Under the pieces are notes generated by a model. It ran no database searches. It saw only the letters and a program-made list of their open reading frames with translations, and was not told the DNA's origin. From NCBI GenBank assembly GCA_028873865.1, contig JAPPNI010000030.1:85268-149267 (forward strand): DNA of 64,000 nucleotides, written 5' to 3'. Position numbers and translations under genes: made by a program. The DNA is from Chloroflexota bacterium (GTDB taxonomy: Bacteria; Chloroflexota; Dehalococcoidia; Bin125). This document shows positions 10,840 through 60,602 of this stretch, one piece after another; the stretch's first letter is position 1; every line of letters begins with the position of its first letter.

Positions 10840-10893
10840 ATCGCGCCTCTTCTCAATCGTCGCTGCGCTCAAGGTAGGCGTTTGGCAGCGCGG

Positions 10894-11814
10894 TCAGTTA
10901 CGGAGAACACTCCTGGGGTCTGGAAACTCCATCGGTTCGTTATAGCTGATCAGCACCGCTGAATAATCGATGTAGATATCCGGCTGCTGCTGATACCGAT
11001 TCCCCATTCGCAACTCCAAACGAAGCAAGGCGCCGGACTCCCGATCGACGATCAGACGCAGATGCGCATAGGACGAAACTGGCTGTTCCGAATGCTCTTC
11101 AAGTTCGCCCTCTTCTTCATCCCCATCCTTGGGTCGGTTGGGATCACGGAACTGAGTTGCAATCACATTGACGAGAGCAGAGAGCTCGCTGTCCGACTCG
11201 GGTGTTCCTGTGTCGCCAGCGCACAGTAAGTCCCATGCGGGCCGACCTTCCCAATTCAGCTCCGAGACCGACCCGATCGTTGAATCGAGGCAATCCAGAA
11301 GCGGCGCGGCTCGCTCCGGGCCGGCCAACTCTTCCAGCTGCAGTAGCCGCTCGAGGTTGGTCACCCAGCCCTGCTCCTGCGCAGCAACCTGTTCCCACTC
11401 GATTCCATCCAACGAGAGATGTACATCTTCATTTGTGACCAGCAGCTGGAATGCGAGAGCCGATCCAGTCGCCTCAAGGGTCGCGAAGTCGATCCAGTCA
11501 CGCCCGGACAGCAGATCCCGATGCGCTCGAGCGCTGATCTTCGCAGTTTCTTCCACGGTGCGGACATCCAACTCCAACTGCAAGACCACTCCGCGCAGAC
11601 TGCCCTGCCATCGGGACAGCGCTGCCACTGCCTGATCTCGTGCGCGTCTGGGGGTCGTCTCGGTTCCCGTCGCTCCGCGACTCTGGGTTCGGCCAACCCC
11701 AGACTGATCAGATGTCTCCGACGAAGCAGGAGCTACAGGAATGCGATCATCACACGCTACCGCCGAACCGGCGAGCAGAATGACCAGAACCGCAATGGTC
11801 AGGCCGCGGACCAT
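10894..11814 (-). CDS. secreted lipoprotein of unknown function, single-repeat paralogue of 7979..9772 (ends ...ISYNEPMEFPDP)
   Basis: Signal peptide MVRGLTIAVLVILLAGSAVAC and a shared C-terminal motif with the larger lipoprotein. Confidence 0.55.
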   Translation of the reverse strand: MVRGLTIAVLVILLAGSAVACDDRIPVAPASSETSDQSGVGRTQSRGATGTETTPRRARDQAVAALSRWQGSLRGVVLQLELDVRTVEETAKISARAHRDLLSGRDWIDFATLEATGSALAFQLLVTNEDVHLSLDGIEWEQVAAQEQGWVTNLERLLQLEELAGPERAAPLLDCLDSTIGSVSELNWEGRPAWDLLCAGDTGTPESDSELSALVNVIATQFRDPNRPKDGDEEEGELEEHSEQPVSSYAHLRLIVDRESGALLRLELRMGNRYQQQPDIYIDYSAVLISYNEPMEFPDPRSVLRN

Positions 11815-11816
11815 GC

Positions 11817-13379
11817 TCACGGCATGTACGGATACGGACACGAACCCAACTGGGTCTTCAGGATCGCCTGCGCATCCTCCACGAACTCGCACAACAGCGG
11901 ACGCGTGTCCGCCGGATCGATGATGTCCTGACCCGTCGCCTCCGCCGTTCGGAAGGGCGACGCGAGGTCCTGCAGACGCTGCTCAATCTCCGCCTGCTTG
12001 GCCTCTGGATCGTCGGCCGTGTCGATTTCGCGCCGATACGCCGCCATCGCCCCGCCTTCGATGTGCATCGAACCCCAGCGGCCCGAGGGCCAGGCCCAGC
12101 GCTGGAACATCCCCGTCGGGCGGTGTTGGCACTGTCCCGCGACGCCGAAGATGCGGCCCATCACGACCGTCGCCCAGGGCATTTGCGACTGGCAGGTCGC
12201 CATCACCAGCCGCGCGCCGGCTCGCTCGATGCCCAGCTTCTCCGACTCGATCCCGACCATGAAGCCGGGCTCGTCGGCGAACGAGATCATCGGCAGATGG
12301 AACATGTCGCAGAGCTGGATCAGGCGGATCACCTTGCTCCCGCCCTTGACGTCGGTCGAGCCGCCCTCGTGCATCGGGTTGTTGGCCATCACCCCGACCG
12401 GATAGCCGTTGATCCGCGCCAGACCCGTGATCCGCGAACGACCGTAGAACGGCGCGATCTCGAAGAACGAGCCCTGGTCCACGCACCAGTTGATCGCACG
12501 ATGGCCGTCGTAGGCGCGTCGCCGGTCACGCGGCACGAGGCGACGCAGGCGCTCTTCGCGCCGGTTCGGGTCGTCGGTTGGCTCGATCCGCTGGGGCATC
12601 TCGTAGACGCTCTGCGGCAGGTAGCTGAGGAACTGCCGAATCTGGCGGAAGGCGTCCTCCTCGTCTTCGGCCAGGTTGTCGACCGAGCCCGACTGGTAGA
12701 CGTGGATCCGCTCGTCGCCGAGGTCCTCTTTGGTCACGTCGTAGCCCAGCGCCGCCTTGACCACCGGAGGGCCGCCGGGAAAGAGCTGCGAGATGCCCTT
12801 GACCATGATCGTGAAATGGGCCATGCAGGCGTTGACCGCCGGCAGGCCGGCGACTGAGCCCATCACTGCCGAGACGACCGGCACCACCCGCAACAGGTCA
12901 GTGTCGAAGGTCGACCACATGTTGCCGTCGGGCAGATAGGTGCGGCCCAGCGTCTCGAATCCGCGCACCGAGCCGCCTGCTGCGTCGAGCATCCGCACGT
13001 AGGGCACGCGCCACTCGAGCGCCCGCTGGTTCGAGCGCTTCTCCGAGCCCAGACCGTCCGACCCGTCGCCGCCGCCCGATCCGCCGCGCACCGTGAAATC
13101 GCCGGCCGAGACCACGACCTTGCGCCCATTGACCTTGCCGAATCCCTCGATCGCGCCCTTCGGCGTGAACCCGACCAGCTCCCCCGCCTCGTCGTAGGAC
13201 GGCCGCCCGACCAGCGACATGAACTCCGTCAACGACCCCGGATCCAGCAGCCCATCAATCCGCTCATTGACCAGCAGCTTGCCCCGCCGCCGCTGCCGAG
13301 CCACCCCTTCTGGCCCACCGCGACCCTTGGCCAACTCCTTGCGCTTGGCGATCTCCGCGATCTCACGTTCCCACGTCAT
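11817..13379 (-). CDS. pccB: acyl-CoA carboxylase carboxyltransferase subunit (propionyl-CoA carboxylase beta chain-like)
   Basis: Carboxyl transferase domain across the full length (MTWEREIAEIAKRKELAKGRGGPEG..., GGSVRGFETLG..., MVGIESEKLGIERAGARLV). Confidence 0.85.
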   Translation of the reverse strand: MTWEREIAEIAKRKELAKGRGGPEGVARQRRRGKLLVNERIDGLLDPGSLTEFMSLVGRPSYDEAGELVGFTPKGAIEGFGKVNGRKVVVSAGDFTVRGGSGGGDGSDGLGSEKRSNQRALEWRVPYVRMLDAAGGSVRGFETLGRTYLPDGNMWSTFDTDLLRVVPVVSAVMGSVAGLPAVNACMAHFTIMVKGISQLFPGGPPVVKAALGYDVTKEDLGDERIHVYQSGSVDNLAEDEEDAFRQIRQFLSYLPQSVYEMPQRIEPTDDPNRREERLRRLVPRDRRRAYDGHRAINWCVDQGSFFEIAPFYGRSRITGLARINGYPVGVMANNPMHEGGSTDVKGGSKVIRLIQLCDMFHLPMISFADEPGFMVGIESEKLGIERAGARLVMATCQSQMPWATVVMGRIFGVAGQCQHRPTGMFQRWAWPSGRWGSMHIEGGAMAAYRREIDTADDPEAKQAEIEQRLQDLASPFRTAEATGQDIIDPADTRPLLCEFVEDAQAILKTQLGSCPYPYMP

Positions 13380-26083: not shown

Positions 26084-27493
26084 ATGGTCACCCGATCCGC
26101 CCGCTCTTTCGGCGACCCTCACTCGGATCACCGAGCCATCTGGCAGCGCACTTTGCAAATCCTCGGCGACTCGCTTGATCGCGAGACCTTCGAGACCTGG
26201 TTTGCCGACACGCACGCGATCGAGGTTCGTGGCGGCGTGCTGCATGTCGGTGTGCCGACCGTGATCAAGCTGGAAACGCTGCGCGGCAGCTACTACCCGC
26301 AGCTCGCCTCGGCGGTCCGTCAAGCCTCGGGCCGATCCATGGAGATTGAACTGCGCGTTGCCTCGCCGCCGGAACCGGTCACGCAAGCTCTCGATCTCCC
26401 CTCAGGCGACGAATCTCAGCCGTCCGCCGAGCGCGGCCAGCCAATCCAGCCGGCGCGCAGCCGTCCGTCCGTCCTCAATCAGGCAACGTTCGAGCGCTTT
26501 GTCGAAGGCACATCCAACCAGATCGCCGTCACCGCATCTCGCCGAGTCGCGTTCCATCCCGGCGAAGACACGAACCCACTGTTCATCTACTCCAACTCCG
26601 GCCTGGGCAAGACCCACCTGCTGCATGCCATCGCACACGTGACCATGCAGTCGCACTACACAGTGCTGGTCGACACGGAGTCTTATGTCCGCCAGTTCGT
26701 CAACAGCGTCGGCGCCGGCGAGCGCGCCGCCTTCCAGGAAAAGTATGAGTCCGCTGAAGTCCTGATCGTCGATGACGTGCAGAAGCTGGGCGGCAAAGTC
26801 CAGACCCAGGACGAGTTCTACAACGTCTTCAACGCGCTGCACCAGCGCGGCCGGCAGATTGTGATCGCCTCCGACCTGCCGCCCAGGTTGTTGACCGGCC
26901 TCAGCGAACGTCTCGTCACGAGATTCGAGGGCGGCTTGGTGGTGGAAATCAACCAGCCCGATGTCGAATTGCGAATGGCAATCCTGCAGCGCAAGATTCG
27001 CGACTGGGGCATGGTTGTTGACGAGCCGACGATTCAGATGATCGCTGAGCGCGGCGGGACGAACATCCGCTCCCTGCTCGGCGGCCTGCAGCGAGTGCGC
27101 GTCTTCGCCGAAAGCGAGCGATCGCTCGTTACGCCAGGCATCGTGATGCGGGCCTTGGCCGGGCATGCGCAGGAAGAAACGCGCAAGGCCAAACCCACCG
27201 TGGCAGAACTGATCGCAGCGGCCTCCGACATCACCGGCGTCGCACCCGAGTTGTTCACTGCCACTCGCAAGGATCGGCGAACGGCCAGGGCTCGCCAGTT
27301 GGTCATGTACCTGGCCTGCCAACACACCGACCTCTCACTCAACTCGATTGGCGAGGCACTGGGCGGACGCGACCACTCGACCGTTCTGCACGGACGCGAC
27401 AAGGTCGAGCGGCTGCTCGCCGACTCTAGCGACGCAGAAGCCCACTGGTGGATCCAGCAGATCTCTGAGATTCGCTCCCGCCTCCACCTCTAG
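26084..27493 (+). CDS. dnaA: chromosomal replication initiator protein DnaA
   Basis: AAA+ Walker A LFIYSNSGLGKTHLLHAIAH and a C-terminal domain IV (LVMYLACQHTDLSLNSIGEALGGRDHSTVLHGRDKVERL). Confidence 0.9.
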   Translation: MVTRSARSFGDPHSDHRAIWQRTLQILGDSLDRETFETWFADTHAIEVRGGVLHVGVPTVIKLETLRGSYYPQLASAVRQASGRSMEIELRVASPPEPVTQALDLPSGDESQPSAERGQPIQPARSRPSVLNQATFERFVEGTSNQIAVTASRRVAFHPGEDTNPLFIYSNSGLGKTHLLHAIAHVTMQSHYTVLVDTESYVRQFVNSVGAGERAAFQEKYESAEVLIVDDVQKLGGKVQTQDEFYNVFNALHQRGRQIVIASDLPPRLLTGLSERLVTRFEGGLVVEINQPDVELRMAILQRKIRDWGMVVDEPTIQMIAERGGTNIRSLLGGLQRVRVFAESERSLVTPGIVMRALAGHAQEETRKAKPTVAELIAAASDITGVAPELFTATRKDRRTARARQLVMYLACQHTDLSLNSIGEALGGRDHSTVLHGRDKVERLLADSSDAEAHWWIQQISEIRSRLHL

Positions 27494-27727: not shown

Positions 27728-29002
27728 ATGATCGATTCCGTCGAGATCGAGATCGAGGGCGGGGCCGGTGGCCGCGGAGCAGTGTCGTTTCGCCGCGAGA
27801 AATTCGTGCCTCGCGGCGGCCCTGACGGCGGCCGCGGCGGCCGCGGCGGAGACGTGGTCGTCCAAGCCAACAGCCAGCTGAACACCCTGCGGCGATACCG
27901 GCGGCAACGACGCTTCCGCGCCGAGCCAGGAACCAACGGTGGAACCAACCAGAAGCGCGGCAGGGCCGGCGCGACCATGGTCCTCGAGCTTCCCGTGGGC
28001 ACGATGGTTTCGCGGCTCCGTGGGCAGGAAGCCGAGCAACTGGTCGACCTGGAAGAGGACAAACAGTCGCTGGTTGTGGCCTGGGGTGGGCGTGGCGGCC
28101 AGGGCAACATGTACTTCCGCAGCGCCACTAACCAGACGCCTCGCGTTGCGCAGAGGGGCGAACCGGGCGAACGCTGCCGCCTGCGCTTCGAACTGCGGGT
28201 GCTGGCCGATGTCGGCATCGTGGGACTGCCGAACGCAGGCAAGTCATCGCTGCTCCGCCACCTGAGCGCCGCCCGCCCGAGAGTCGCCGACTACCCCTTC
28301 ACGACTCTGGAGCCGCATCTCGGCGTCGTCTCCGTCGGCTGGGGCGAGTTCGTAATGGCCGACCTGCCGGGCCTGATCGAGGGCGCCGCCGGCGGAGCGG
28401 GGCTCGGGCACGAGTTCCTCCGCCACACCTCCCGAACCAGACTGCTGGTCCACCTGATCGACGGCTCGCAGGACAATCCACGAGCCGCAAAAGCCCTGGT
28501 CGACCGCGAACTCGCCGGGTACTCGGCCGATTTGGCCGGGCGGCCACAGATCGTCGTCGTCAACAAGGTCGATCTCGAAGAAGTCGACGTCTTTCGCGAC
28601 GAGATCACTGCGCAATTCGGCGACCTGGAGTCGCCGCCGCTCTTCTGCTCCGCCGCGACCGGCGAAGGCGCCCAAACCTTGGTCGATGCATGCGCGTCGA
28701 TGCTGGAAGAACTTCGGCAGCAGGAGCCTCCGCGGACGACGGAGGTGCCCGTCGTCCGGCCCAGGCAGGACGGCCGGCGATTCGAAGTCGACGAGTTGGC
28801 CTCGGGGCTCTACCAGGTCCGGGGGGCATCGGTCGAGCGGTTTGTCTCGATGATGGATCTGGGCGAAGACGAGGCCCTGGCCGAGACCTACCGCTGGCTG
28901 GATCGTCGAGGCGTGGCCTCGGCCCTGCACCGCGCCGGCTGTCAGCCAGGCGACGTGGTCAGGATCGGTCGGTCGCGCATTACTTGGGAATGGGAGCGCT
29001 GA
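27728..29002 (+). CDS. obg: GTPase Obg
   Basis: Glycine-rich N-terminal Obg fold (GGRGGDV, GGAGGRG), a G domain (GLPNAGKSSLL) and a C-terminal OCT domain. Confidence 0.9.
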   Translation: MIDSVEIEIEGGAGGRGAVSFRREKFVPRGGPDGGRGGRGGDVVVQANSQLNTLRRYRRQRRFRAEPGTNGGTNQKRGRAGATMVLELPVGTMVSRLRGQEAEQLVDLEEDKQSLVVAWGGRGGQGNMYFRSATNQTPRVAQRGEPGERCRLRFELRVLADVGIVGLPNAGKSSLLRHLSAARPRVADYPFTTLEPHLGVVSVGWGEFVMADLPGLIEGAAGGAGLGHEFLRHTSRTRLLVHLIDGSQDNPRAAKALVDRELAGYSADLAGRPQIVVVNKVDLEEVDVFRDEITAQFGDLESPPLFCSAATGEGAQTLVDACASMLEELRQQEPPRTTEVPVVRPRQDGRRFEVDELASGLYQVRGASVERFVSMMDLGEDEALAETYRWLDRRGVASALHRAGCQPGDVVRIGRSRITWEWER

Positions 29003-29702: not shown

Positions 29703-33089
<3,387 letters not shown>

Positions 33090-41869: not shown

Positions 41870-44203
41870 TCAGCGCGGACTGATCGGCTGTGGAGGCGGC
41901 TCGCCAGCTGACTGCCTCGCTGTTAACCCCGCCACGATGCCGCTCTCGATCAACTCCTCGATCGCCGAGTCATCGAGGCACAACACCTCGTTGAGAATCT
42001 CGACCGTGTGCTCGCCCATCCGAGGCGCCGGTCGCAGACATGATGCGGGCCGCCGGCGCAGCCGCCAGGGGAATCCCTGATATTGACGAGTACCGCTATC
42101 GGGATGCGTCAGATACAGCCACCAATCCCGAGCCGCCAGGTGCGGATCCCGTAGATGGGTCAGGGTCGAATGGACAGCCGCCGCCGGCACACCGACCGCC
42201 TGCAGGCGGTGCTGCAGCGTCAGCGCGTTCCAGCTGCGAGTCCACTCGCTCAGGGCAGACTCCAACGCAACCTCATCGGCTTTGCGACCCCTCGCCGTCC
42301 GCCACTCGGGACGATCGATCCCGGCAACCTCTGCAAGCCGCAGCCAGGTTTCGTCGCCTCGAACCGAAATCGCGATCCACTCGTCGTTACCGTCGACGCC
42401 ATCGGCGCAGCGGAAGCACTCGTGTGGCGCCGCGTCTGGTATCCGATTCCCATCACGCGCCGGCATCTCCTGCCCCGCCGAGGCGGCCAGAAGATATTCG
42501 TCGATGTATGCGACCGCGGACTCAAACATCGAACCTTCGACATGTACGGCCGCGCGTCCCCGCTGCGCCTGCCACGCCGCCGCCAGGGCCGAGGCCGCCA
42601 TCTGCGCGCCGACGATCGGGTCGGCCTGCATCGTGCCCAGCATCACCGGCTTGTCGCCCCGGTAGCCAAGTAACAGATCCCAGCCCGCGTTGCCCTCGGT
42701 CGTGCCGCCGTTGGCGCGGAAGTTGTCGTATGGACCGCCGGTGCCGAAACCGGAGAAGGAGACCAGTGCGATATGCGGATTGACCTCGCGCATGTGCTCG
42801 TGGGTCAGCCGCAGGTTTTGCAGCACGCGCGGACGAAAGTTCTCCAGCACCACGTCAGCGCGAGCGATCAAATCGAGCGCCAACTTGCGTCCCTTGTCCG
42901 TATCGAGGGCAATCGAGATCGTTCGCTTGCCCCGATTGGCCATGTTGAAGTTGGGCCGCACATTCAGGGGATGCGCATCCGGTGAAGCGACCCGCATCGG
43001 ACCGCTCGCCTCGTAGCGCCAGAGATCAGGGCGCTTCGGCCCCTCCACCTTGATCACCTCTGCGCCCAGATCGCTGAGAAGTCCCGACGCGTACGGTCCC
43101 AGCCATGCATGGGTGAAGTCGACCACGCGCAAACCATCGAGCGGTCCCGTCGAACGTTCAGGTTGCCGCCGCTGCGCGAATCGGTCCGTGCGCTCCGCCT
43201 GCCCCTCAACTTCCGTGACACGCATCGCTCGGCCGGCTCCGGTGAGACCGTTGTTGTCGCGAAAGAAATCAATCGCCTTGAGCTGCGGATCCTCTAGCAG
43301 TTGCTGCGCCGAGCGGTGCATCGCCATCACCGAGCCCAGCTCCGACAGCTTCGCCCAGATCGTCGCCGCATCCAGCGACTCGACGATTGGCCGCACATAC
43401 TCCAGCGACGGTTCTCGTTCGGCAAAGCGTCCTTCACCTTCCAGCAGTTCACTTGGAGGTGGATCACAGCCGAAGGCGATCGGCGCATTGCGAAGCGTCT
43501 CCCTCGACCAGGGCGAGAGCGTGATGTAGCCGTCGGCCGTCTCCATCACCTCAGCCCAGCCTGGCGTCCCTCCGACTCGTAGCAGCGCCTCGCCCGAGAA
43601 CTCCGAACGCAGCGACATGATCAGGGTTGAGACAGCCTCGTGCGACGACAGCTCAATCCACTCGCCCCGGCCTGAGTGCAGACGCTCGAGCAGCGCCGCA
43701 AACGCCGCCACGGCGCCCAGGATGCCAATCGCCCGAGGAATGATCGCCGCTGGAGCGGCCAGCGGCTCCTGCGGCGCGACGCCATTCGTCCCGGCAAAGC
43801 CCGACAACGCCTGGATGATCAGGTCGTCGGACAAGTAGTCGGAGTACGGACCGTCGGTCCCAAACGGCGACGAGTGGACGACAATCAACTCCGGGAACTC
43901 GCCAGCGATGCCGTTCAGTTCCGCAAGCGGCGCGTCCGTCACGAACACATCCGCAGCGGAGAGCTTGGCGCGCCAGTCGCCCGATCCAGGTGACTTGCCG
44001 ACCATCAGCGACTCACGCAGCAACGAAACAGTCTCGCCGTCTCGTTCGATCGTCGGCGCGGCAACCTTCAAGCGCGAATCTTCGGCTTCGAAGACCGAGA
44101 CCCGCGCTCCCCAGCGCGCGAACTCAAGCGCGCATGCCGCCGCAGGTACGTCACGGCTGTACTCGACGACGCGGATGCCGCTCAGCAGATTGCCGTCCGA
44201 CAC
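41870..44203 (-). CDS. family III CoA-transferase (CaiB/BaiF), single-chain tandem fusion of two CoA-transferase domains
   Basis: Two consecutive CoA_transf_3 N-termini (GIRVVEYSRDVPAAACALEFARWGARV and LDGLRVVDFTHAWLGPYASGLLSDLGAEVIKVE); 777 aa against ~400 for a single domain. Confidence 0.8.
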   Translation of the reverse strand: MSDGNLLSGIRVVEYSRDVPAAACALEFARWGARVSVFEAEDSRLKVAAPTIERDGETVSLLRESLMVGKSPGSGDWRAKLSAADVFVTDAPLAELNGIAGEFPELIVVHSSPFGTDGPYSDYLSDDLIIQALSGFAGTNGVAPQEPLAAPAAIIPRAIGILGAVAAFAALLERLHSGRGEWIELSSHEAVSTLIMSLRSEFSGEALLRVGGTPGWAEVMETADGYITLSPWSRETLRNAPIAFGCDPPPSELLEGEGRFAEREPSLEYVRPIVESLDAATIWAKLSELGSVMAMHRSAQQLLEDPQLKAIDFFRDNNGLTGAGRAMRVTEVEGQAERTDRFAQRRQPERSTGPLDGLRVVDFTHAWLGPYASGLLSDLGAEVIKVEGPKRPDLWRYEASGPMRVASPDAHPLNVRPNFNMANRGKRTISIALDTDKGRKLALDLIARADVVLENFRPRVLQNLRLTHEHMREVNPHIALVSFSGFGTGGPYDNFRANGGTTEGNAGWDLLLGYRGDKPVMLGTMQADPIVGAQMAASALAAAWQAQRGRAAVHVEGSMFESAVAYIDEYLLAASAGQEMPARDGNRIPDAAPHECFRCADGVDGNDEWIAISVRGDETWLRLAEVAGIDRPEWRTARGRKADEVALESALSEWTRSWNALTLQHRLQAVGVPAAAVHSTLTHLRDPHLAARDWWLYLTHPDSGTRQYQGFPWRLRRRPASCLRPAPRMGEHTVEILNEVLCLDDSAIEELIESGIVAGLTARQSAGEPPPQPISPR

Positions 44204-45894: not shown

Positions 45895-45973
45895 TCCTTG
45901 CCGCTGAACTCAGTACCCATCAGGCGCGCATCGGACTAAACGCTACTCTCTTGTCAGGTTGAGAGGTGCGGGA

Positions 45974-47032
45974 ATGGCCTTTGAGTACACCGGCGTCGAT
46001 TTGCCGATTCGGGAGAAGACGATCGCCTCCCAACGCATGAGCTGGGAGATGATCGCCAATCCCGGCCGCTGGTGGACCGGCGCGGAACGCGTCGAGATCG
46101 CGAGAATCGGACGTGCGGCGCGAGACTTCGAGGCAGTCGGTAGCGAGATCCTGCCCGAGGCCGCCGTCTACTCAATCCAGAAGCTGGTCGTTGACAACGC
46201 CAACCTCAACCGCGAGTGGTACGACGAGATCATGGCGTCCGAAGGCATAACCGAGGACCGGTACGTCGAGCTGGTCGCGGTGGTCGTCCACTCGTTCTCG
46301 ATCGACGAGTTCCATCGCGCCCTCGGCCTCGCCCTCGAACCACTGCCCGACCCCGTGAGTGGCGAACCCACGCGACAACGACCGGCTCAGGCCGAGCAGC
46401 GCTACTCCTGGCCGCCGATCGTCCCCAAGGCTGGACTCAACCCCGGCGACGAGATGCTCTATGGACCAATGGAGTGGGGCGCCAACGTCATCTCTGCGCT
46501 CTCCCTGATTCCCGAGAACGTGCGCTGGCTGCACGATCTCTCTGAGGGCCACTACCTCTCCTTCGCCGAAATGCGCCAGCCCGACCCGCTGCGGGCCATC
46601 TCTCGCTCGCAGATCGAGCTGATCGCGGCCCGAGTCTCGGCGCTCAACGAATGCTTCTATTGAACCGCCTCCCACGTGCGCATGCTCCGTGAGAGCAGCC
46701 AACGCAGCGGAACCATCGACAATCTCAACCTCCAGGGCACGGTCAATCCCGACGCCGACAGCGGCGTCCCCCAGGGCAGCCTGCTGACCGCCTTCGCCGA
46801 GGCCGCCGTTCGCCAGACCGACGCTCTGCCCGGCCTGCGCGATCAGATCGTCTCGGAGCTCGGCGTACAAGAGCTCGTTGACGCCGCCGGCGTCGTGGCC
46901 AACTTCCAGCGCATGGTTCGGATCGCCGATGGCTGCGGCATCCCGCTCGACGAATTCACCAAAGACGCAACCGACGATGTCCGCGACGAACTTGGTATCC
47001 ACGAGTACGCGTCGGCCGCCAATACGGCATAG
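45974..47032 (+). CDS. AhpD/CMD-family putative selenoprotein (copy 1): ORFs 45959..46663 and 46676..47032 are in one frame, joined by UGA 46661-46663 read as selenocysteine (NECFY-U-TASH)
   Basis: Both ORFs are in the same frame. A single TGA sits exactly where the second Cys of the CMD/AhpD motif N-x-C-x-Y-C-x-x-x-H belongs. A paralogue shows the identical arrangement, and a hairpin follows 19 nt downstream. Confidence 0.55.
46683..46697 (+). other. SECIS-like hairpin (UGCUC-CGUGA-GAGCA) 19 nt after the UGA of copy 1
   Basis: Folded by eye; the GU-containing apical loop matches the bacterial SECIS pattern. Confidence 0.3.
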
Positions 47033-47047
47033 AGCTCGGAGTTCGCC

Positions 47048-48142
47048 ATGACTACGACGACTGCCTCGTTCGCGTACACCAGCACCACTTGGCCTGTGCT
47101 CGATCGAATGGCCGCAGCGCACCGGCGCAGTTGGAAGATGCTGGCCGCGCCCGGAGAGTGGTGGACCGGCGCCGAGCGGATCAGTATCGCTGCCGAATGC
47201 CGACGCGCCTCGGCGCGGGTGGATGGCCTGCCCGATCCCGGACCTGGACCGGCCGAACTGCCCGAGGCCGCCGTGTTCGCCATCCACAAGCTGATCGGCG
47301 ACCTACCCAACGTCACCCGCGACTGGTACGACGAGACCATCAGCGCCGAGGGCATGTCCGACGCGCACTACATCGAGTTGCTGGGCGTCGTCGTGCACAT
47401 CTGGTCGGTCGACGAATTTCATCGAGCGCTGGACATCGACCTGGAACCGCTCCCTGAGCCGCTCGCGGGTGAACCGACGCAGATTCGTCCCACAGGGGCA
47501 AAGGCGCACGGCAGTTGGCCGCCGACGGTCTGGCCGGACGACCTGGATGAACGGGACGCGGACATCTACGGCGGCGCCGATCGCGCTGCCAACGTCCGCG
47601 CCGCGATGAGTCTGCATCCCGACAGCGTCCGTTGGCTCACCGATCTGTTCGACGCGCACTATCTGAGCTGGATCGAGATCCAGGCGGTGCAGGAGCCGTT
47701 CCGCGTCCTCACCCGCCCCCAACGCGAGCTGGTCGCGGCCCGCGTGTCGGCGCTCAACGAGTGCTTCTATTGAACGATCTCCCACGTGATGCTGCTCGGT
47801 CGGAGCAGCGAAGGCAACGACGCGCTGAACCTCAACGGAACGGTGCGCAATGAAGTCGACAGTGGAGTCGAGCACGGAGAAATCCTGTTGCGCTACTCCG
47901 ACGCGGCAGTCGGCCGAACTCCGGATCTCAGGGCCGCGCGTGACGCGCTCGACATCGCCATGGGACCCGACGCCGTCGTCGATTGCGCCGCAACCATCGC
48001 CAACTTCCAGAGAATGGTGAGAATCGCCGACGGCTGCGGCATCCCCCTGGACCCGTTCTCCAGAGAGGAATCCGCGAAGTGGCGAGACGGCCTCGGGATC
48101 GACGATTTCCGCAGCCGAGGGAACACCTTCGACGAGAACTGA
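47048..48142 (+). CDS. AhpD/CMD-family putative selenoprotein (copy 2): ORFs 47048..47773 and 47786..48142 are in one frame, joined by UGA 47771-47773 (NECFY-U-TISH)
   Basis: Same architecture as copy 1 with conserved context around the UGA, followed by a 7-bp-stem hairpin. Confidence 0.55.
47791..47809 (+). other. SECIS-like hairpin (GCUGCUC-GGUCG-GAGCAGC) 17 nt after the UGA of copy 2
   Basis: Perfect 7-bp stem with apical loop GGUCG; the position relative to UGA fits a bacterial SECIS. Confidence 0.4.
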
Positions 48143-50802: not shown

Positions 50803-52458
50803 CTAATGCAACCGCTTGATCAACACGTCAGATCCACTGGCATCTCGCCGATAGTAGCGATACCCCGCCGATTTGTACTGTTCTTCGCTCAGCCCCGAGA
50901 CAGTCTGAACAGTTAAGCACAACCAGCGAATCTCGCGCCCGCCCGCCGAAGCTTCGCACGAGTCGCGCAACCGCTCGGCGACACTGCCCGGCGCATCCGG
51001 TCGGGCAGCAAGGCAGCGAATCATTGCTCGTCCGTCGTCGCCGAACTCCACGGCCGCAACACCGAGGATGTCCTCCTGCTCCTGTCTGCCATTGCCATCC
51101 TCGACTCGTGGTGTCTGGACGGAAGCCAGCCAGACGACTGCGTCGCCTGCCAGTGCCTGAGCCAACAACTCGTCACATGTCGGCGCGAGGCCGGCGACCT
51201 GCGCAGCCAGTAGTTGGTCCACGGCGTCGGCGTCCGCCTGCCCGGCGGGACGTATCCGGACATCCAGTTCTCGCTCGGGATCGCTGGGATAGCCGCTGAT
51301 CAGCAAGTCGGCGCCAAGCCGCTCAACGGTCATGTGGTTCAGGCGCAACACATCACGCATCCGTTTGGCGCCCTGTCCGCGTACGGCGGCCTGTGCATCC
51401 CCGCCGATGATCATCGGCGCCACCACTGCCGTCACCTTGTTGACCAGACGCTGGTCAAAAAAAGAACCCAGCACGTCGCCCCCACCCTCGACCAGCAGAC
51501 CGACCACCCCGCGCTCCTGGCCCAGCAGATCGAGGAGCGCCGGCAGTGACACTCGTCCGTTCTCGTCGGCCGGCAGCACAGCCACATCGATCTTTCGGGA
51601 GGCCATCGCCTCACGCCACTCCGCGCTCGCGGACACGGTGGCGATCAGCGTCGGCGATGACGAAACGTCCTCAAGCACTCTGCTGTCAAGCGGCGTCCGG
51701 CCACGACTGTCGACCACCACGCGCAAGGGCTGCGGCACCGGACCGTTCCAGCGCTCCGGACGAGCGGTCAGCTGCGGATCGTCAACGATGATCGTCTCCA
51801 CCCCGACCAGCATGGCGTCGAACAGTGGCCGGTTCTGGTGCGCCCACTGGAGCGTCTGCGGCCCCGAGATCCAGCGCGAGTCGCCGCTCGTCGAGGCGAT
51901 CCGGCCGTCCAGCGACGCGGCGAACTTCGCCGTCACAAACGGCCGCCCGGTTCGCCGGTGATGCGCGTAGGCTTCGTAGTGGGCTGCCCCTTCGGCGGCC
52001 CCATCGCCGAGGTTGACCTCGATGCCCGCCTCGCGAAGCTGCGCCAGCCCGCGACCGGAGACTCGAGGATCGGGGTCGCCAACGGCGACGACCACGCGCG
52101 CCACCCCCGCCTTGATGATCGCCTCCGTACAGGGCGGCGTCCGCCCGAAGTGAGCGCACGGTTCAAGGGTGACGTACATCGTCGAGCCCCGAGCGAGGTC
52201 GCCTGCCTGCCGCAGAGCCATCACCTCCGCATGCGGACCGCCCGAGCGCTTGTCGGACCCCGATTGGTGCGGGCGGCCGTGTCGCGAGGACGGATCGGAA
52301 CTCCCCGGAGGCTGCGTCGCACCCTCGCCCACGACTCGCGAACCGCGGGCGACGACCGCGCCCACAGCGGGATTGGGGCTCGTCGTACCGCGCACGGCGC
52401 GGGCCAGCTCGAATGCCCGCAACATCAGGCGTGAGCTGCCGGCCGAGCGCGCGCTCAT
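50803..52458 (-). CDS. ribD: riboflavin biosynthesis deaminase/reductase RibD fused to a C-terminal GNAT-like domain (likely start at MLRAFELA, 52425)
   Basis: CDA zinc motif HAEV...PCAHFGRTPPC, a RibD_C reductase domain, and ~150 extra C-terminal residues with an acetyltransferase-like LSEEQYKSAGYRYYRRD. Confidence 0.8.
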   Translation of the reverse strand: MSARSAGSSRLMLRAFELARAVRGTTSPNPAVGAVVARGSRVVGEGATQPPGSSDPSSRHGRPHQSGSDKRSGGPHAEVMALRQAGDLARGSTMYVTLEPCAHFGRTPPCTEAIIKAGVARVVVAVGDPDPRVSGRGLAQLREAGIEVNLGDGAAEGAAHYEAYAHHRRTGRPFVTAKFAASLDGRIASTSGDSRWISGPQTLQWAHQNRPLFDAMLVGVETIIVDDPQLTARPERWNGPVPQPLRVVVDSRGRTPLDSRVLEDVSSSPTLIATVSASAEWREAMASRKIDVAVLPADENGRVSLPALLDLLGQERGVVGLLVEGGGDVLGSFFDQRLVNKVTAVVAPMIIGGDAQAAVRGQGAKRMRDVLRLNHMTVERLGADLLISGYPSDPERELDVRIRPAGQADADAVDQLLAAQVAGLAPTCDELLAQALAGDAVVWLASVQTPRVEDGNGRQEQEDILGVAAVEFGDDGRAMIRCLAARPDAPGSVAERLRDSCEASAGGREIRWLCLTVQTVSGLSEEQYKSAGYRYYRRDASGSDVLIKRLH

Positions 52459-53620
52459 GCTCGTCGGCGGCGATCGACAATCGTGAGCACCAGCCAGAAC
52501 ACGGCGGAGCTGATCGCAATGGCGGCGAGCACGATCTGGACGGGCAGTTCCCAGGACGGATCCCTGGCCAGCTGAACCGTCGATGAGCGGGGCCGCTGCT
52601 CCAGCGGCCAGTCGGACTCGCCCCGCGCCACCGAGGTCGCGACGGAACGCGTCTCCGTGTCTTCAGCCAGCGCCCGGTCGTCGTCCGAGGATCTTCCCGC
52701 CTGCGCTTCGACCGCGCTCGATCGACTCCCGGAGTCCTGCGCCACCGTCGCATCGGCTGCCTGCTCTTGCGCGTCGTCTTCCCGGCTCGCGGCAGCGGCT
52801 ACAGCCTCTTCCGCCTCTTCCTCCTGTGCAACGACATCCTCCACATTGACGCTCTTGGATTCGCCGGTCCCGCTGCTGCGACCAGCGGTCAAGGCCCGGC
52901 GCGATGGGTCTGCCGCAGACTCGTCAACTACCGCCTCTTCAACCTCTTGCTGCGCCTGTTCCTCCTGGTATGCCTCAGCCTGCTGTTCGGCCTGTTCCTG
53001 TTCGATCGCCTCCTCAGCGGCCTCTTCCTCGTCCTCTACGGACGCCACTGCCGCGACCGCGACCTGTTCGTCGTCCTGCTGCGCCTCGTCCGCCAGGGCG
53101 GCGACGGTCTCAGACTCACCCGACGCCGGCGAAGCAGCCTCATCAGCCGCCTCCCGAGCCTGCGTCTGCACCTCGACCGCCTGGGTCACGACCGACGCCG
53201 TCGGAACCAGGGTCGCCTGCGCATCAGCCGATGTCGTCGTGAAGTTAACCGTTGGGGAATCGACCGCGTCGAAAACCATCACCGCGGCGAACGTCGCGAC
53301 GCCGACCGCCGCAGTGGACATCGATAGTCGCAGGGCCCGAGTCGTGCTCGCCGGTTGTACCGATATCTGCGTGGTGTCGTTGAGCATCTCAGTCGTGAGC
53401 TGGAATGGAACCTCGCCTGGCGCTGCCTCGAAGCTGCGCAGCACCGAGCGCATACGCTGCAGGTCGGCCAGGTACTCCTGCATCTCGACCGACTCGGCCA
53501 GCCTCGACTCCACCCGCGCTCGATCTCGAGGCGAAAGTTCCCCATCCATGTACGCCGAGATGTCCTCGCGCCAGTCGACGCGGTGCGGCAACAGCGAGGA
53601 GATCAATCGCCACGTCATCT
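52455..53620 (-). CDS. putative anti-sigma factor (N-terminal anti-sigma domain, TM helix, long acidic Ala/Glu/Gln-rich extracytoplasmic tail, C-terminal hydrophobic helix)
   Basis: ISAYMDGELSPRDRARVESRL anti-sigma N-domain signature; lies directly downstream of the ECF sigma gene. Start set at MTWRLISS; the ORF extends to 53774. Confidence 0.6.
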
Positions 53621-53830
53621 CACACCGACCCCGGAATCCACCTCTACGCCGACAACGGCCAGCTGCTGGGTACGTCCCTCGTCTACAAATGTAGACGCTC
53701 CTCCGGGCGAAATAGTTCCACAACTGGCCTCGGTCATCGACAGTGGACCGGTGTCGCCGGCAACATAACGACACGGATCACCGCGCCGGCGACAAAGCCC
53801 GCACCCCCTCGGCCCTCAACGCCCCAACCG

Positions 53831-54559
53831 CTAACCATCGGCATCGGACAACTCCTTCGACTGCCGCTCGTTGAGGAAATCCCTCATCGCCGAGCGTCCG
53901 CGGCTGATACGTGATTTCACCGTGCCCATCGACCAGCCGGTGGCATCCACAATCTCGCGATACTCCATGTCGGCGACGTCCCGGTAGAAGACCGCGCGTC
54001 GCTGCTCTTCCGGCAGGGACTCCAACGCCTCTCGCAGCGTTCCGCTCAGTTCGATGTTGAGCAGGTGCTCGTCCAGGGAACGCTCGCCCGACTCCGGCGC
54101 AAACTGGTCGCCAAGCGAATCGGTCAGTCGGTCGAGCGACGTCGTCGGTCGCCGCTGCCGCTGGCGCAGATGGTCGAAGCACGTGCGCCGCGCGATCACT
54201 CCCAGCCAGGCCGGGAACTTACCCCGCTGCTTGTACGTGTTCAGCCGGTCCCACGCCTTGATGAACGACTCCTGCATCAGGTCGTCGGCGTCGGCCATCC
54301 CAACGATCCCGCGGCAGGTCGCGCGCACGCGCGTTTGATGACGCAGCACCAGAATGTTGAACGCGTCGAGCCGCCCGTCCAGCGAGACGGCGACCAACTG
54401 GTCGTCATCCAGGACATCGAGATCCGGTTGACCGCCCGGACGGTTCACCAAAGCGCTCCCCTGCTGTCGCCCGCTCGCCGGAAACCTCCGGCCGCGTCCG
54501 AGCGGGCGGAGCCTGTGGGACACTGCGTCCATGCCGCTCGTCGATCCAGGCCCAATCAT
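53831..54559 (-). CDS. ECF (sigma-70 family group IV) RNA polymerase sigma factor; real start probably internal (GTG near 54448 or ATG 54532)
   Basis: Region 2 (DDQLVAVSLDGRLDAFNILVLRHQTRV; FIKAWDRLNTY) and region 4 (YREIVDATGWSMGTVKSRISRGRSAM). Confidence 0.8.
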   Translation of the reverse strand: MIGPGSTSGMDAVSHRLRPLGRGRRFPASGRQQGSALVNRPGGQPDLDVLDDDQLVAVSLDGRLDAFNILVLRHQTRVRATCRGIVGMADADDLMQESFIKAWDRLNTYKQRGKFPAWLGVIARRTCFDHLRQRQRRPTTSLDRLTDSLGDQFAPESGERSLDEHLLNIELSGTLREALESLPEEQRRAVFYRDVADMEYREIVDATGWSMGTVKSRISRGRSAMRDFLNERQSKELSDADG

Positions 54560-55439: not shown

Positions 55440-57824
55440 ATGCTCAGCGATTATCGAATTCTCGATCTGACGGACGATCGCGGCCTGATCGGCGGAATGA
55501 TCCTGGCCGACCTCGGCGCCGATGTGATCGCGATCGAGCCTCCCGGCGGCAATGCCGCCCGCCAACGCGGCCCCTTCGCCGACGGCTCCAACCAGGGCGG
55601 TATCGAAGACTCCCTGACCTGGCAGTCCTACGCCCGAGGCAAGCGCTCGGTCGTCCTGGATCTGGAGTCCGACGACGGTCGCGCACAGTTCATTGAGCTC
55701 GCGCGCTCGGCCGACGCGGTCATCGAGTCGGCCGACGTCGGCGGCATGGATTCTCTCGGCCTCGGCTATGAGACGCTCTCTTCCGTCAACCCTGGCCTGG
55801 TCTACGTCGCCATCACCCCCTTTGGCTCCACCGGACCCAAGGCCGGCTGGGCCGCGACCGACATCACCGTCGCCGCCGCAGCCGGACCGATGATCCAGAG
55901 CGGCGACAAAGACCGACCGCCGCTCCGAGTCGGATTGCCGCAGACCGCCCTACACGCCGGCGCGGAGGCGGCGCTGGCCGTCCTCATGGCCCTGCACGAG
56001 CGCCAGCGTTCCGGACGTGGACAGTTCGTCGATGTCTCCGCCCAGGCCGCCTACGCCCAGGCGACGCAGTCCGGAATCGTTGCCGCTGCCAACAACTCCG
56101 GCCAGTTCACACGCTCAGCCGTCGGCGCAGCCCTCGGCCCACTTGAGATCCGGCTCTTCTGGCCCTGCAAGGATGGCCACGTCGCGATCACATATCTGTT
56201 TGGCGCGGCGATCGGCCCCTTCACCGACCGACTCATGCAGTACGCCCTCGAGGAGGGCTACTGCGACCAGGCCACCCGCGACAAGGACTGGCTCAACTAC
56301 ACCAACCTCATCCTCAGCGGACAGGAACCGATCAGCGAGTACCTCCGCTGCTGTGACGTGATCGGCGCGCTCTGCGCCGACAAGACCAAGGCCGAGCTGT
56401 TCCAGGTCGCGCAGGAGCGTCGCCTCCTCCTGGTCCCGGTTTCAACGATGGACGACCTCGATGAAAACGAGCACCTCGCCGCCCGCTCCTACTGGCGCGC
56501 AGTCGAGCGCGACGGTCAGACGGTTAAGTTTCCAGGACCGTTCGCCCGTCTCTCCGAGACGCCGATCCAGTACGGCCGCTCCGCGCCGATGCTCGGCGAA
56601 CACACCGATGAAGTCCTCGCCGAAACGCGTCCCGCAGCGAGTCTGCACGCCGCCAACGGCTCCGGCGACTCGGCGCCGACCGCCCCACCCCTCTCCGACC
56701 TCAACATGCTTGACCTGATGTGGGTCATGGCCGGACCGGCTGGGACGCGAGCGCTCTGCGACTTCGGCGTCAACACGGTGCGAATCGAATCCAGCACCCG
56801 GATCGACACCGCCCGCACCCTGCAGCCGTTCATCGACGACGAAGCCACCCAACCCGAGGGCTCGTCGATGTTCCACAACATGAACGCCGGCAAACGCATG
56901 ATCACCGTCGACCCGGCCAACCCCGAAGGCCGCAAACTGATCCTCGACCTCGTCCGCTGGGCCGACATCGTGACCGAGTCCTTCACGCCCCGCGCCATGC
57001 GCGGCTGGGATCTGACCTGGGACACCATCCACGAGGTCAACCCGCGCGCGATCATGATGTCCTCCTGCCTCATGGGACAGGATGGCCCCCTGGCCGAGTT
57101 CGCGGGCTTCGGTAATCTCGCCGCCGCCTTCGCCGGCTTCACCCCGCTCTGCGGCTGGCCCGACCGCTCGCCTGCCGGACCCTTCGGCGCATACACCGAC
57201 TACGTCGCCCCGCGCTTCGCCTCCGCCGCCCTCTTGGCCGCCCTCGACGAGCGCGACCGCACCGGACAAGGCCAGTACATCGACATCTCGCAGATGGAAG
57301 CCGCCATCCACTTCCTCACCCCAGCCTTCCTCCAGTACCGCCTCACCGGCGAGAAGTGGCTCGCCGACGGCAACAACGACCCCGACATGTCCCCCCACGG
57401 CGTCTTCCCCTCCCAGGGCGAAGATCAATGGGTCGCCATCGCCTGCCGAGACGACGCCGACCGCGCCGCCCTGGAATCCGTGCTCAACGGCCAGTCGTTG
57501 GAAGAATGGACCGCCGCCCGCTCGAACGAGGAAGCCATGAACGCGCTCCAGGCCGTCGGCGTGCCCGCCCACGCCGTCCAGGACTCCGCCGCCTGCTTCG
57601 CCGACCCCCAGCTCCAGCACCGCAACCACTTCGTCCAGCTCGCCCATCCGACGCAAGGACAGTCGGTCGTCGAGGGAGCCAGGATCGTCTTCGGCCGTAC
57701 CCCCGCCGGCCGACCCCAGGTCGCCCCGACCATGGGCGCCGACAACGACACCGTCCTCCGTGACCTCCTCGGCTACACCGACGAGCAGGTCATCGAGCTG
57801 GTAGCGTCTGGCGCGTTGCAGTAA
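55440..57824 (+). CDS. family III CoA-transferase (CaiB/BaiF), single-chain tandem fusion of two domains; paralogue of 41870..44203
   Basis: MLSDYRILDLTDDRGLIGGMILADLGADVIAIE and a second LNMLDLMWVMAGPAGTRALCDFGVNTVRIE CoA_transf_3 start; 794 aa. Confidence 0.8.
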   Translation: MLSDYRILDLTDDRGLIGGMILADLGADVIAIEPPGGNAARQRGPFADGSNQGGIEDSLTWQSYARGKRSVVLDLESDDGRAQFIELARSADAVIESADVGGMDSLGLGYETLSSVNPGLVYVAITPFGSTGPKAGWAATDITVAAAAGPMIQSGDKDRPPLRVGLPQTALHAGAEAALAVLMALHERQRSGRGQFVDVSAQAAYAQATQSGIVAAANNSGQFTRSAVGAALGPLEIRLFWPCKDGHVAITYLFGAAIGPFTDRLMQYALEEGYCDQATRDKDWLNYTNLILSGQEPISEYLRCCDVIGALCADKTKAELFQVAQERRLLLVPVSTMDDLDENEHLAARSYWRAVERDGQTVKFPGPFARLSETPIQYGRSAPMLGEHTDEVLAETRPAASLHAANGSGDSAPTAPPLSDLNMLDLMWVMAGPAGTRALCDFGVNTVRIESSTRIDTARTLQPFIDDEATQPEGSSMFHNMNAGKRMITVDPANPEGRKLILDLVRWADIVTESFTPRAMRGWDLTWDTIHEVNPRAIMMSSCLMGQDGPLAEFAGFGNLAAAFAGFTPLCGWPDRSPAGPFGAYTDYVAPRFASAALLAALDERDRTGQGQYIDISQMEAAIHFLTPAFLQYRLTGEKWLADGNNDPDMSPHGVFPSQGEDQWVAIACRDDADRAALESVLNGQSLEEWTAARSNEEAMNALQAVGVPAHAVQDSAACFADPQLQHRNHFVQLAHPTQGQSVVEGARIVFGRTPAGRPQVAPTMGADNDTVLRDLLGYTDEQVIELVASGALQ

Positions 57825-59380: not shown

Positions 59381-59457
59381 AACTGGCTGTGGGTCCTTAG
59401 CTCAGTTGGCCAGAGCAGCGGACTTTTAATCCGAAGGTCCTGGGTTCGAGTCCCAGA
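59381..59457 (+). tRNA. tRNA-Lys (anticodon UUU), genome-encoded CCA
   Basis: Folded by hand: 7-bp acceptor stem GGGTCCT/AGGACCC, D arm GCTC/GAGC, anticodon loop CTTTTAA, T arm CTGGG-TTCGAGT-CCCAG, discriminator A then CCA. Confidence 0.85.
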
Positions 59458-59543
59458 GGACCCACCACGTTCACCCAGGCCCAGACGATTCGGCGCGGTT
59501 AGGGCAGGGTCGTATGCTTGGCCGTCCGAACGTGAGAATCTAG

Positions 59544-60539
59544 GTGCGCGCTCAAGGACGAAGGGGATTTGTCGTGGACGAGGAGACATTCATAAGGGGC
59601 CTTAGGCAACACGGCGTGCGAGCTGAGTCGTCAATTCCTGCCAAGATGAGGGAGCTCCTTGACTGTGAGCAGATGGAGCTTGAATCCGTTTTCGTGGAGG
59701 CGAAGCCCAATCTCACCATGACTCTTGTACATCGGGTGGAACTCGGGCAGGGAGATATCCAGGAACGCCCGTCCTCCATTGTGAAGTACTCTCCCGCTCG
59801 CTACGCGCCAGCACGCACCGAACGCCTCAAGATTGCGACAGCGCGTCACTACAGGGAGTTCGAGGGCGGTGGGCCTGGCATTCGGGACGAGCACGATGCT
59901 GTCTATCGGCAATCCATCAAGAGTTTCTTCGAGCGCTGGAATCCCGATGCGTTAACGCTGCTGGCTCCATTCTCCACAACATTCACAGCAGACTCGCGAG
60001 ACTATACGGTGGAAGTCGTTCCGAGCGGAACAGTCAACCGTGCCGCCGACGGCGAGTGGATCTATTGCGCGTCCCTTGAGCCTCGGACGAAGGCCGAGCA
60101 GGACATGATGTTCCAAGAGTTTTCCGCCGATAGTATGACTCGATTTCAGCACCCTACCGATTTGGCCCGAGAGTTGGGCAGCGCCTTCTCGCGTTCTGCA
60201 TCGGCGTTTCCTGTGACATTCGATACCGACGTTGACCAGCTTCAAATCTCCGCCATGAGGGAGCAATCCTCGTTGGAGAAGATTGTACATGTCTACCATG
60301 GACCGGTGGCATACACCGATGACCCGGAGCATCTGATTGAGCCGATCCCTAGCCTTCTACAAGGGTCAGCCGTGCCATTCCTGAAGTCGCCGGAGTTCGG
60401 TCATCAGAGGGAGTATCGATTCGTAATCAGCACAATTGGAGCCCCGAACGAGGAGGTCTTGTACGTGCCCATAACTGACGACCTTAGAGACCTAGTTTTG
60501 GGCACGGAGTACCAATCCGTCTCGGTGGCGGACCGATAG
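59544..60539 (+). CDS. hypothetical protein (331 aa) on a lower-GC islet next to tRNA-Lys
   Basis: Long ORF with roughly 53-55% GC against ~67% in the flanks; no recognisable motif. Confidence 0.55.
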   Translation: MRAQGRRGFVVDEETFIRGLRQHGVRAESSIPAKMRELLDCEQMELESVFVEAKPNLTMTLVHRVELGQGDIQERPSSIVKYSPARYAPARTERLKIATARHYREFEGGGPGIRDEHDAVYRQSIKSFFERWNPDALTLLAPFSTTFTADSRDYTVEVVPSGTVNRAADGEWIYCASLEPRTKAEQDMMFQEFSADSMTRFQHPTDLARELGSAFSRSASAFPVTFDTDVDQLQISAMREQSSLEKIVHVYHGPVAYTDDPEHLIEPIPSLLQGSAVPFLKSPEFGHQREYRFVISTIGAPNEEVLYVPITDDLRDLVLGTEYQSVSVADR

Positions 60540-60602
60540 GAGTCAGCGGGTGTTGTCGCCAGCGTTTCGCCGGGTCAACTGCGACCGATAGGGGCCGATC
60601 AA

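Follow-up and report, generated by a model that had tools for sequence, protein, structure and literature searches.

A 64,000-nucleotide stretch of DNA from a Dehalococcoidia bacterium (Chloroflexota, lineage Bin125; contig JAPPNI010000030.1, positions 85,268 to 149,267), hereafter called the window, carries two adjacent paralogous genes, copy 1 and copy 2, each with one in-frame TGA inside the common motif N-E-C-F-Y-[UGA]-T-x-S-H. Comparison of these genes with their relatives makes it highly probable that both are complete, functional members of the NF041238 selenoprotein family, in which the internal UGA is recoded as selenocysteine (Sec). An earlier reading of the DNA letters (the original prediction) had already taken both genes for selenoproteins, and that view was borne out by full-length matches to NF041238 and by the presence of TGA at the same codon in relatives' genes (114 of 114). 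The in-frame UGA lies within NECFY-[UGA]-T-(A/I)-S-H in both cassettes just as it had been described, with the surroundings A-L-N-E-C-F-Y-[TGA]-T-A-S-H-V-R-M-L-R-E-S-S in copy 1 and A-L-N-E-C-F-Y-[TGA]-T-I-S-H-V-M-L-L-G-R-S-S in copy 2. The two proteins share 48% identity, and the conservation of the UGA context between the copies, also pointed out at the outset, amounts to 83% DNA identity around the TGA. Coordinates of both genes and their elements are collected in Table 1.

All family searches were made with Cys substituted for the in-frame stop. The NCBIfam equivalog model NF041238 ('AhpD_rel_CFYUT', 'alkylhydroperoxidase-related (seleno)protein'; 357 positions, cut-off 175 bits) matched copy 1 with 355 bits over profile positions 1-356 and copy 2 with 343.8 bits over positions 3-357, and the C-F-Y-U-T motif that gives the model its name is present in both copies. 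Both genes are ordinary members of this known selenoprotein family. The Pfam CMD model (PF02627, gathering score 23) scored 30.5 bits in copy 1 and 24.0 bits in copy 2, covering only about 30-40 residues around the motif (residues 208-249 in copy 1, spanning the UGA); as a sequence match, this assigns the proteins to the family at the level of the domain only, with no implication of decarboxylase activity. TIGR01926 (peroxidase-related enzyme) stayed below its cut-off of 81.8 bits in copy 1 (38.8 bits) and copy 2 (29.5 bits), with matches that straddle the UGA, as does a weak match to TIGR00778. Judged by these scores, the window proteins are related to the TIGR01926 proteins, yet belong to a different family. 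TIGR00777 (AhpD sensu stricto; cut-off 191.95 bits) reached 14.8 bits in copy 1 and gave no match in copy 2.

The original prediction had regarded the approximately 220 residues ahead of the UGA as an extra N-terminal domain. Because the NF041238 matches run end to end, this region is no added domain; it is integral to the 357-position profile, with about 80 of its residues belonging to the UGA-interrupted AhpD-type domain and the rest forming the family's own N-terminal lobe. Most members outside the Chloroflexi carry an N-terminal D-C-x-F-C-x-x-R-K-A-A-L-S-P segment with a CxxC motif (alignments A2 and A4), which is missing from both window copies and from their Dehalococcoidia orthologues (the region around residues 50-60 of copy 1).

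We then examined the recoded codon across relatives. Scanning one genome per species turned up at least 539 relatives, which were reduced to the best 78 loci; these came from Dehalococcoidia/Chloroflexota, Binatia, Myxococcota, Gammaproteobacteria, Thermodesulfobacteriota, and other groups, and supplied the 114 family genes with TGA at the CFY_T codon. Protein searches mirrored this pattern. Copy 1 retrieved almost exclusively proteins of 229 aa and 241 aa that end in NECFY, truncated at the UGA, and the downstream part retrieved 521 proteins, nearly all of them 'hypothetical proteins' of 113-125 aa; on a syntenic 3.6-Mb Dehalococcoidia chromosome, consecutive gene calls measure 229, 116, and 241 aa. 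Automated annotation thus splits the genes into pieces of about 229/241 aa and about 116 aa, as had been expected. Full-length Cys forms are rare and comprise P0108 (NECFYCTNAH), P0112, and P0121 (both NQCFYCTS.H). These three carry Cys at the aligned position, which upheld the placement of the UGA at the second Cys of C-x-x-C-x-x-x-H; at the DNA level, the aligned codon is TGT or TGC in loci L080, L081, and L082. Even among the 120 best matches to the Cys-form P0112, all but two were truncated at the UGA. A further homologue, P0102 from a Pseudomonadota metagenome-assembled genome (MAG; L083, positions 1001-2227), carries Val, encoded by GTC, where Sec or Cys would stand, and the hairpin downstream of it is degraded. 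P0102 is named '(seleno)protein' by NCBI although its redox residue has been lost altogether.

The coding signal continues across the UGA. Relative to 16 orthologues, substitutions in copy 1 at the first, second, and third codon positions numbered 406/202/1400 upstream and 162/119/763 downstream of the UGA, and the corresponding counts for copy 2 against 6 orthologues were 137/80/492 and 94/53/246; substitution is therefore concentrated at third positions on both sides of the UGA in both copies. TGA is also the commonest ordinary stop codon in the window (22 of 52 genes) and ends copy 2 itself, so UGA is not reassigned genome-wide.

Each UGA is followed by a hairpin resembling the selenocysteine insertion sequence (SECIS) of bacteria. 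The 5-bp and 7-bp stems with GU-containing loops given in the original prediction were recovered, but the offset of 19-21 nt that went with them needs correction: counted from the final base of the UGA, the stems begin 17-19 nt downstream. In copy 1, the 5-bp core is extended by two further pairs (46680-81 with 46698-99) across a bulged A46682. The apical loop begins 24 nt after the UGA, and the usual spacing from UGA to loop in bacteria is 16-37 nt. We aligned 110 distinct 63-nt stretches from the TGA onward, without gaps, and found a helix between columns 21-27 and columns 33-39 enclosing a 5-nt loop. Its five inner pairs are standard-paired in 95-100% of the sequences, which, together with the constraint on synonymous sites described below, agrees with the SECIS-like hairpin that had been predicted. 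The closing pair changed from C-G to U-A three times and was never broken, and pair 22-38 occurs as CG (57), AU (6), and GC (2). When the 3' partners were slid by 1-3 columns, pairing fell from 87% to 25-51%. Within the loop, every sequence has G29 and at least 90% have U30; a conserved guanosine in a small apical loop is characteristic of bacterial SECIS elements (PMC1088965). The hairpin is broken in three of the four non-Sec homologues (three Cys forms and one Val form) and kept in L080, whose nearest relatives are Sec forms.

Several results weigh against the selenoprotein interpretation. Single-sequence folding of the two hairpins was no better than that of shuffled sequences (z = -0.67 and +0.77), and RNAalifold returned no consensus structure for the 110 sequences, which is why pairing was counted explicitly in the alignment. 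Rfam yielded neither a SECIS nor any other family, either across the whole window at gathering thresholds or within 46560-47900 at E<=10. Covariation is modest, with 16 doubly changed cells, and the hairpin overlaps the conserved peptide L-L-R/G-x-S-S, so part of its conservation is at the protein level. Moreover, no selA, selB, selD, or tRNA-Sec was present in the 64-kb window or in the retrieved flanks: ARAGORN reported no tRNA-Sec in the window and 60 loci, NCBIfam identified the 10 window open reading frames (ORFs) of SelA/SelB/SelD-like size as dnaA, gyrB, obgE, ychF, asd, and others, with no sel genes among them, and tblastn with approximate E. coli SelA, SelB, and SelD queries found nothing in the window or the loci. 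Finally, we found no biochemically characterised member of the family, and the chemistry discussed below is drawn by analogy with AhpD.

Because of the overlap with the conserved peptide, synonymous sites were examined separately. Third-codon-position entropy is 0-0.44 bit in codons 8-12 (nt 22-36 after the UGA) versus 1.3-1.8 bit elsewhere. Leu9 is encoded by CTC in 107 sequences, by CTT in 3, and by CTG in none, whereas CTG accounts for 50% of the Leu codons across 23 window genes. At codon 10, 100 of the 110 sequences have NGT, set against a window usage of 10% for CGT among Arg codons and 14% for GGT among Gly codons. Ser12 is AGY in 105 of 105 cases, compared with 19% AGY among the Ser codons of the window and with Ser4, outside the hairpin, which is only ever TCN; this is the weakest of the codon-usage items because the Ser codon class seldom switches. 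The suppressed synonymous variation, the rare codons, and some compensatory changes support the view that the hairpin behaves as would be expected of a bacterial SECIS. In common with SECIS elements of the E. coli fdhF type, it sits within the coding sequence immediately 3' of the UGA and has a small apical loop, 24 nt from the UGA, with a conserved G followed by U. It differs from them in its short stems (5-7 bp) and in matching no Rfam model.

The lack of visible Sec machinery in the window and flanks, the only data that could be searched, would also fit a UGA that is read through without Sec, whether Trp, Cys, or Arg enters through near-cognate or suppressor decoding or the hairpin stimulates read-through generically, given that hairpins after stop codons can stimulate read-through generally. 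We nevertheless consider this improbable. The UGA stands for the redox Cys of a CxxC centre, which is the classical Sec/Cys pairing, and the spacing between UGA and loop is typical of SelB-dependent SECIS elements. The loop G, together with the U, is typical of them too (PMC1088965), and the family is curated as a selenoprotein both by NCBI and in selenoproteome surveys (PMC13188914). The class Dehalococcoidia also includes genomes rich in selenoproteins, with two MAGs carrying 46-49 selenoprotein genes each and ranking among the top ten bacteria (BSepDB, PMC13326102).

Less probable still is that the UGA is a true stop separating two genes, one of about 229 or 241 aa and one of about 116 aa restarting at GTG, whose products perhaps assemble non-covalently. 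Gene callers do yield exactly such pieces in hundreds of public contigs, and downstream ORFs of 118 aa begin in frame at GTG 46676 and GTG 47786, 12 nt past each TGA. In this respect the ORF sizes first proposed were right, but the figure of about 235 aa upstream was not kept for copy 1, for which 229 codons are likelier. Against a restart, the four codons that separate the UGA from the putative GTG are conserved as T-x-S-H, with the His invariant in 110 of 110 sequences, and codon 6, the position of the GTG, is GCN, TCN, or ACN and hence no start codon in about 38 of the 110. No Shine-Dalgarno (SD) motif precedes either GTG, where cctcccac stands instead. In addition, the Cys-form homologues are continuous single proteins, and a stop at the UGA would cut one AhpD-type domain and its CxxCxxxH centre mid-way. 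Pseudogenes, in which a nonsense mutation from TGC or TGT to TGA inactivated each copy, would need only one base change, but the comparative data effectively refute them, given the TGA shared by every sampled gene across several phyla, the third-position-dominated substitution that goes on downstream of it, and the conserved hairpin with its constrained synonymous sites. Because the comparative results on TGA, Cys forms, and constraint combine in this way with the ordinary use of TGA as a stop in the window, we exclude both separate genes and pseudogenes as explanations.

For Sec insertion, the reading we favour, the mechanism would follow established bacterial Sec decoding. The internal UGA of each mRNA would be recoded as Sec, with the conserved hairpin, its loop 24 nt past the UGA and holding an invariant G and a near-invariant U, serving as the putative SECIS that recruits SelB bound to GTP and Sec-tRNA(Sec). 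Each gene would then yield a single polypeptide of about 350-365 aa with an all-helical, two-lobed AhpD/Sestrin-like fold. Its predicted redox centre, Cys-x-x-Sec-x-x-x-His, corresponds to the CxxCxxxH of AhpD except that Sec takes the position of the second Cys, and a Cys-Sec selenenylsulfide redox cycle may be expected by AhpD analogy.

To place these sequences on a fold, we modelled P0112, a Cys form that shares 39% identity with copy 1 in alignment A4; this alignment comprises 49 sequences, the four window ORF pieces among them. The model forms one compact all-helical body (pLDDT 94.1, pTM 0.93), and Foldseek matched it to the AhpD-core proteins 6k40, 2prr, and 2oyo with target-normalised TM scores of 0.73-0.77. 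According to this model, the family fold is a single all-helical, two-lobed AhpD/Sestrin-like body that spans the UGA, and the CxxCxxxH active site is present on the AhpD helical fold, with Sec predicted for the second Cys in the window proteins. An hhalign comparison of the N-terminal with the C-terminal half gave a weak match (probability 6%, E 0.007) that puts the N-terminal C-x-x-C of non-Chloroflexi members over E-C-F-Y-U. Together with a match to human Sestrin-2 (5cuf/5dj4), this weak alignment suggests an ancient internal duplication. The Sestrin-2 likeness, seen in the model, is a resemblance of fold only and not a claim of homology; identity is 10%, and Sestrin-2 differs in being a eukaryotic leucine sensor without Sec.

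The nucleophile of M. tuberculosis AhpD is its second Cys (Cys133), which His137 assists. By analogy, Sec at this position would give a more reactive selenolate, and the most likely chemistry is thiol/selenol oxidoreduction via a transient Cys-Sec selenenylsulfide, used to reduce peroxides or disulfides or as part of a related redox relay. The window proteins would thereby resemble M. tuberculosis AhpD (1gu9/1knc) in the dithiol chemistry expected of them, here in selenol/thiol form. They differ from it in sequence (14% identity; 14.8 bits to TIGR00777 versus a cut-off of 192), in the replacement of the second Cys by Sec, and in that no AhpC partner was identified near the window pair.

Table 1. 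Coordinates of the paired selenoprotein genes and their elements in the window
Feature	Coordinates	Strand	Details
Copy 1, AhpD-related selenoprotein gene	45974..47032	+	352 codons including predicted Sec at codon 230; stop TAG 47030-47032
Copy 2, paralogous AhpD-related selenoprotein gene	47048..48142	+	364 codons including predicted Sec at codon 242; stop TGA 48140-48142
Copy 1 in-frame UGA, inferred Sec	46661..46663	+	C227-F-Y-U230-T-A-S-H234
Copy 2 in-frame UGA, inferred Sec	47771..47773	+	C-F-Y-U-T-I-S-H
Copy 1 SECIS-like hairpin	46680..46699	+	core stem 46683-46687/46693-46697, loop CGUGA 46688-46692
Copy 2 SECIS-like hairpin	47791..47809	+	perfect 7-bp stem 47791-47797/47803-47809, loop GGUCG 47798-47802

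The mechanical ORF of copy 1 starts at TTG 45959. The start is most likely ATG 45974 instead, because the orthologues begin with MAF(E/D)Y and an SD-like gaggtg precedes this ATG; the orthologues are called as 229-aa MAF(E/D)Y... proteins, and 229 codons lie between ATG 45974 and the TGA. An SD-like motif also stands ahead of ATG 47048 in copy 2. The two genes are probably co-transcribed, since they are separated by 15 nt on the same strand and the flanking genes lie on the opposite strand; no promoter or terminator consensus was found for the pair.

Orthologues of copy 1 (74-93% identical) were found in 28 Dehalococcoidia loci, in most of which an orthologue of copy 2 (64-90% identical) follows within a few tens of nucleotides. 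Two copies also occur in more distant Dehalococcoidia, in two Binatia loci, and in one Myxococcota locus. Because the two-copy arrangement recurs in this way, the sequence comparison identifies the tandem pair as an old duplication maintained in the Dehalococcoidia lineage and not as a peculiarity of the window; the original prediction, which had thought such a pair unusual, was mistaken on this point. Several of the loci (L036/L037 and L039-L043, e.g., OZ253471.1 and OZ247431.1) have a third paralogue or a second tandem pair elsewhere on the chromosome, and the family has therefore expanded to at least three Sec-containing copies per genome in this Dehalococcoidia lineage.

The pair stands alone on the plus strand of its neighbourhood. 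Genes on the opposite strand precede it, coding for a PcaD-like alpha/beta hydrolase (score below cut-off), an enoyl-CoA hydratase, and a family III CoA-transferase of double length, and the convergent genes ribH, ribBA, ribE, and ribD follow it downstream. Clustering of neighbours across distant loci revealed no universally conserved partner gene, and the recurrent neighbours there were enoyl-CoA hydratase (12 loci), luciferase-like monooxygenase (9), short-chain dehydrogenase/reductase (8), and CoA-transferase (7). A speculative and rather unlikely proposal is that the CxxC-less paralogues form an obligate heteromeric Sestrin-like selenoenzyme with a distinct redox relay, which might serve the neighbouring acyl-CoA or oxidative catabolism. 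If true, it would provide a function for a family that almost always uses Sec and to which none has been assigned since 2005.

Some other features of the window were recorded alongside. A window-wide scan for in-frame TGA codons with coding signal on both sides returned the two known sites and one antisense artefact, the TGA at 28246 (-), which lies in the antisense frame of obgE in a high-GC genome. The same-frame ORF pair at 9859-11892 (-) was considered as a further selenoprotein and rejected, being two ordinary adjacent genes. The family III CoA-transferase genes at 41870-44203 (-) and 55440-57824 (+) encode proteins of about 780-790 aa, around twice the usual length; in the former, only residues ~350-757 match CaiB/Frc-type models, and its N-terminal half probably represents another, divergent CoA-transferase module. 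At 52455-54559 (-), an extracytoplasmic function (ECF) sigma factor gene (53831-54559) is followed by a 439-aa ORF without a family match (52455-53774), which immediately precedes ribD on this strand and whose L001 orthologue has a weak zf-HC2 anti-sigma signature. A tRNA-Lys (59391-59467) is followed by an ORF at 59544-60539 with a third-position GC content of 0.65 versus about 0.8 and no NCBIfam match, and then by a 462-aa ORF at 60603-61991 with adenine DNA-methyltransferase matches and a C-terminal HNH/IscB-like stretch; the region 59391-61991 may be a mobile element integrated at tRNA-Lys. The genes dnaA (26084-27493, +), obgE (27728-29002, +), and gyrB (30370-32439, -) are clustered, and because they lie close together, the window is probably near the chromosomal replication origin.

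Earlier work has already recorded this family together with its motif and SECIS, as well as the use of Sec in Dehalococcoidia. A 2026 review equates NF041238 with 'hypothetical protein 1' of the 2005 Sargasso Sea selenoproteome (PMC13188914), which was described there from four Sec sequences with a CxxU motif and a drawn SECIS and was kept separate from the AhpD-like family (PMC1088965). Both window genes match this family at full length and share with it the N-x-C-F-Y-U-T-x-x-H motif, the codon at which the UGA stands, and the SECIS-like hairpin directly downstream, as well as the two-lobed architecture, including the N-terminal ~150-200 residues. Unlike most members, they do not have the N-terminal CxxC segment, their C-terminal tail after U is about 120 aa long versus 150-170 aa, and they form a conserved tandem pair of paralogues.

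The AhpD-like CxxU selenoproteins were likewise discovered in the Sargasso Sea data, with 27 sequences (PMC1088965). They are not rare, contrary to the original prediction: in the GOS data, 'AhpD-like 1' ranked fourth in abundance among selenoprotein families, with 299 Sec and 902 Cys sequences (PMC2398784). Both AhpD-like 1 (COG2128/TIGR01926) and AhpD-like 2/CMD (PF02627) resemble the window proteins in having CxxU in an AhpD/CMD fold and pairs of Sec and Cys homologues, and they are abundant in marine bacteria, as is the family of the window proteins. They differ in being single-domain proteins of about 180 aa, to which the window proteins add an N-terminal helical lobe, and the distance to AhpD-like 1 is also apparent from the window proteins' TIGR01926 scores of only 29-39 bits.

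The window genes leave the understanding of Sec decoding and of AhpD-type redox proteins unchanged. Their value lies largely in annotation, as most public gene calls break each gene into two 'hypothetical proteins'. Because of this splitting, selenoprotein counts for Dehalococcoidia and other uncultured marine bacteria come out too low without Sec-aware annotation. Within the family, Sec use is near-universal, extending to every gene sampled in the best 78 loci, with only a handful of Cys or Val forms. Small leads toward the function of the family come from its Sestrin-like double AhpD fold and from the conservation of the paralogue pair.

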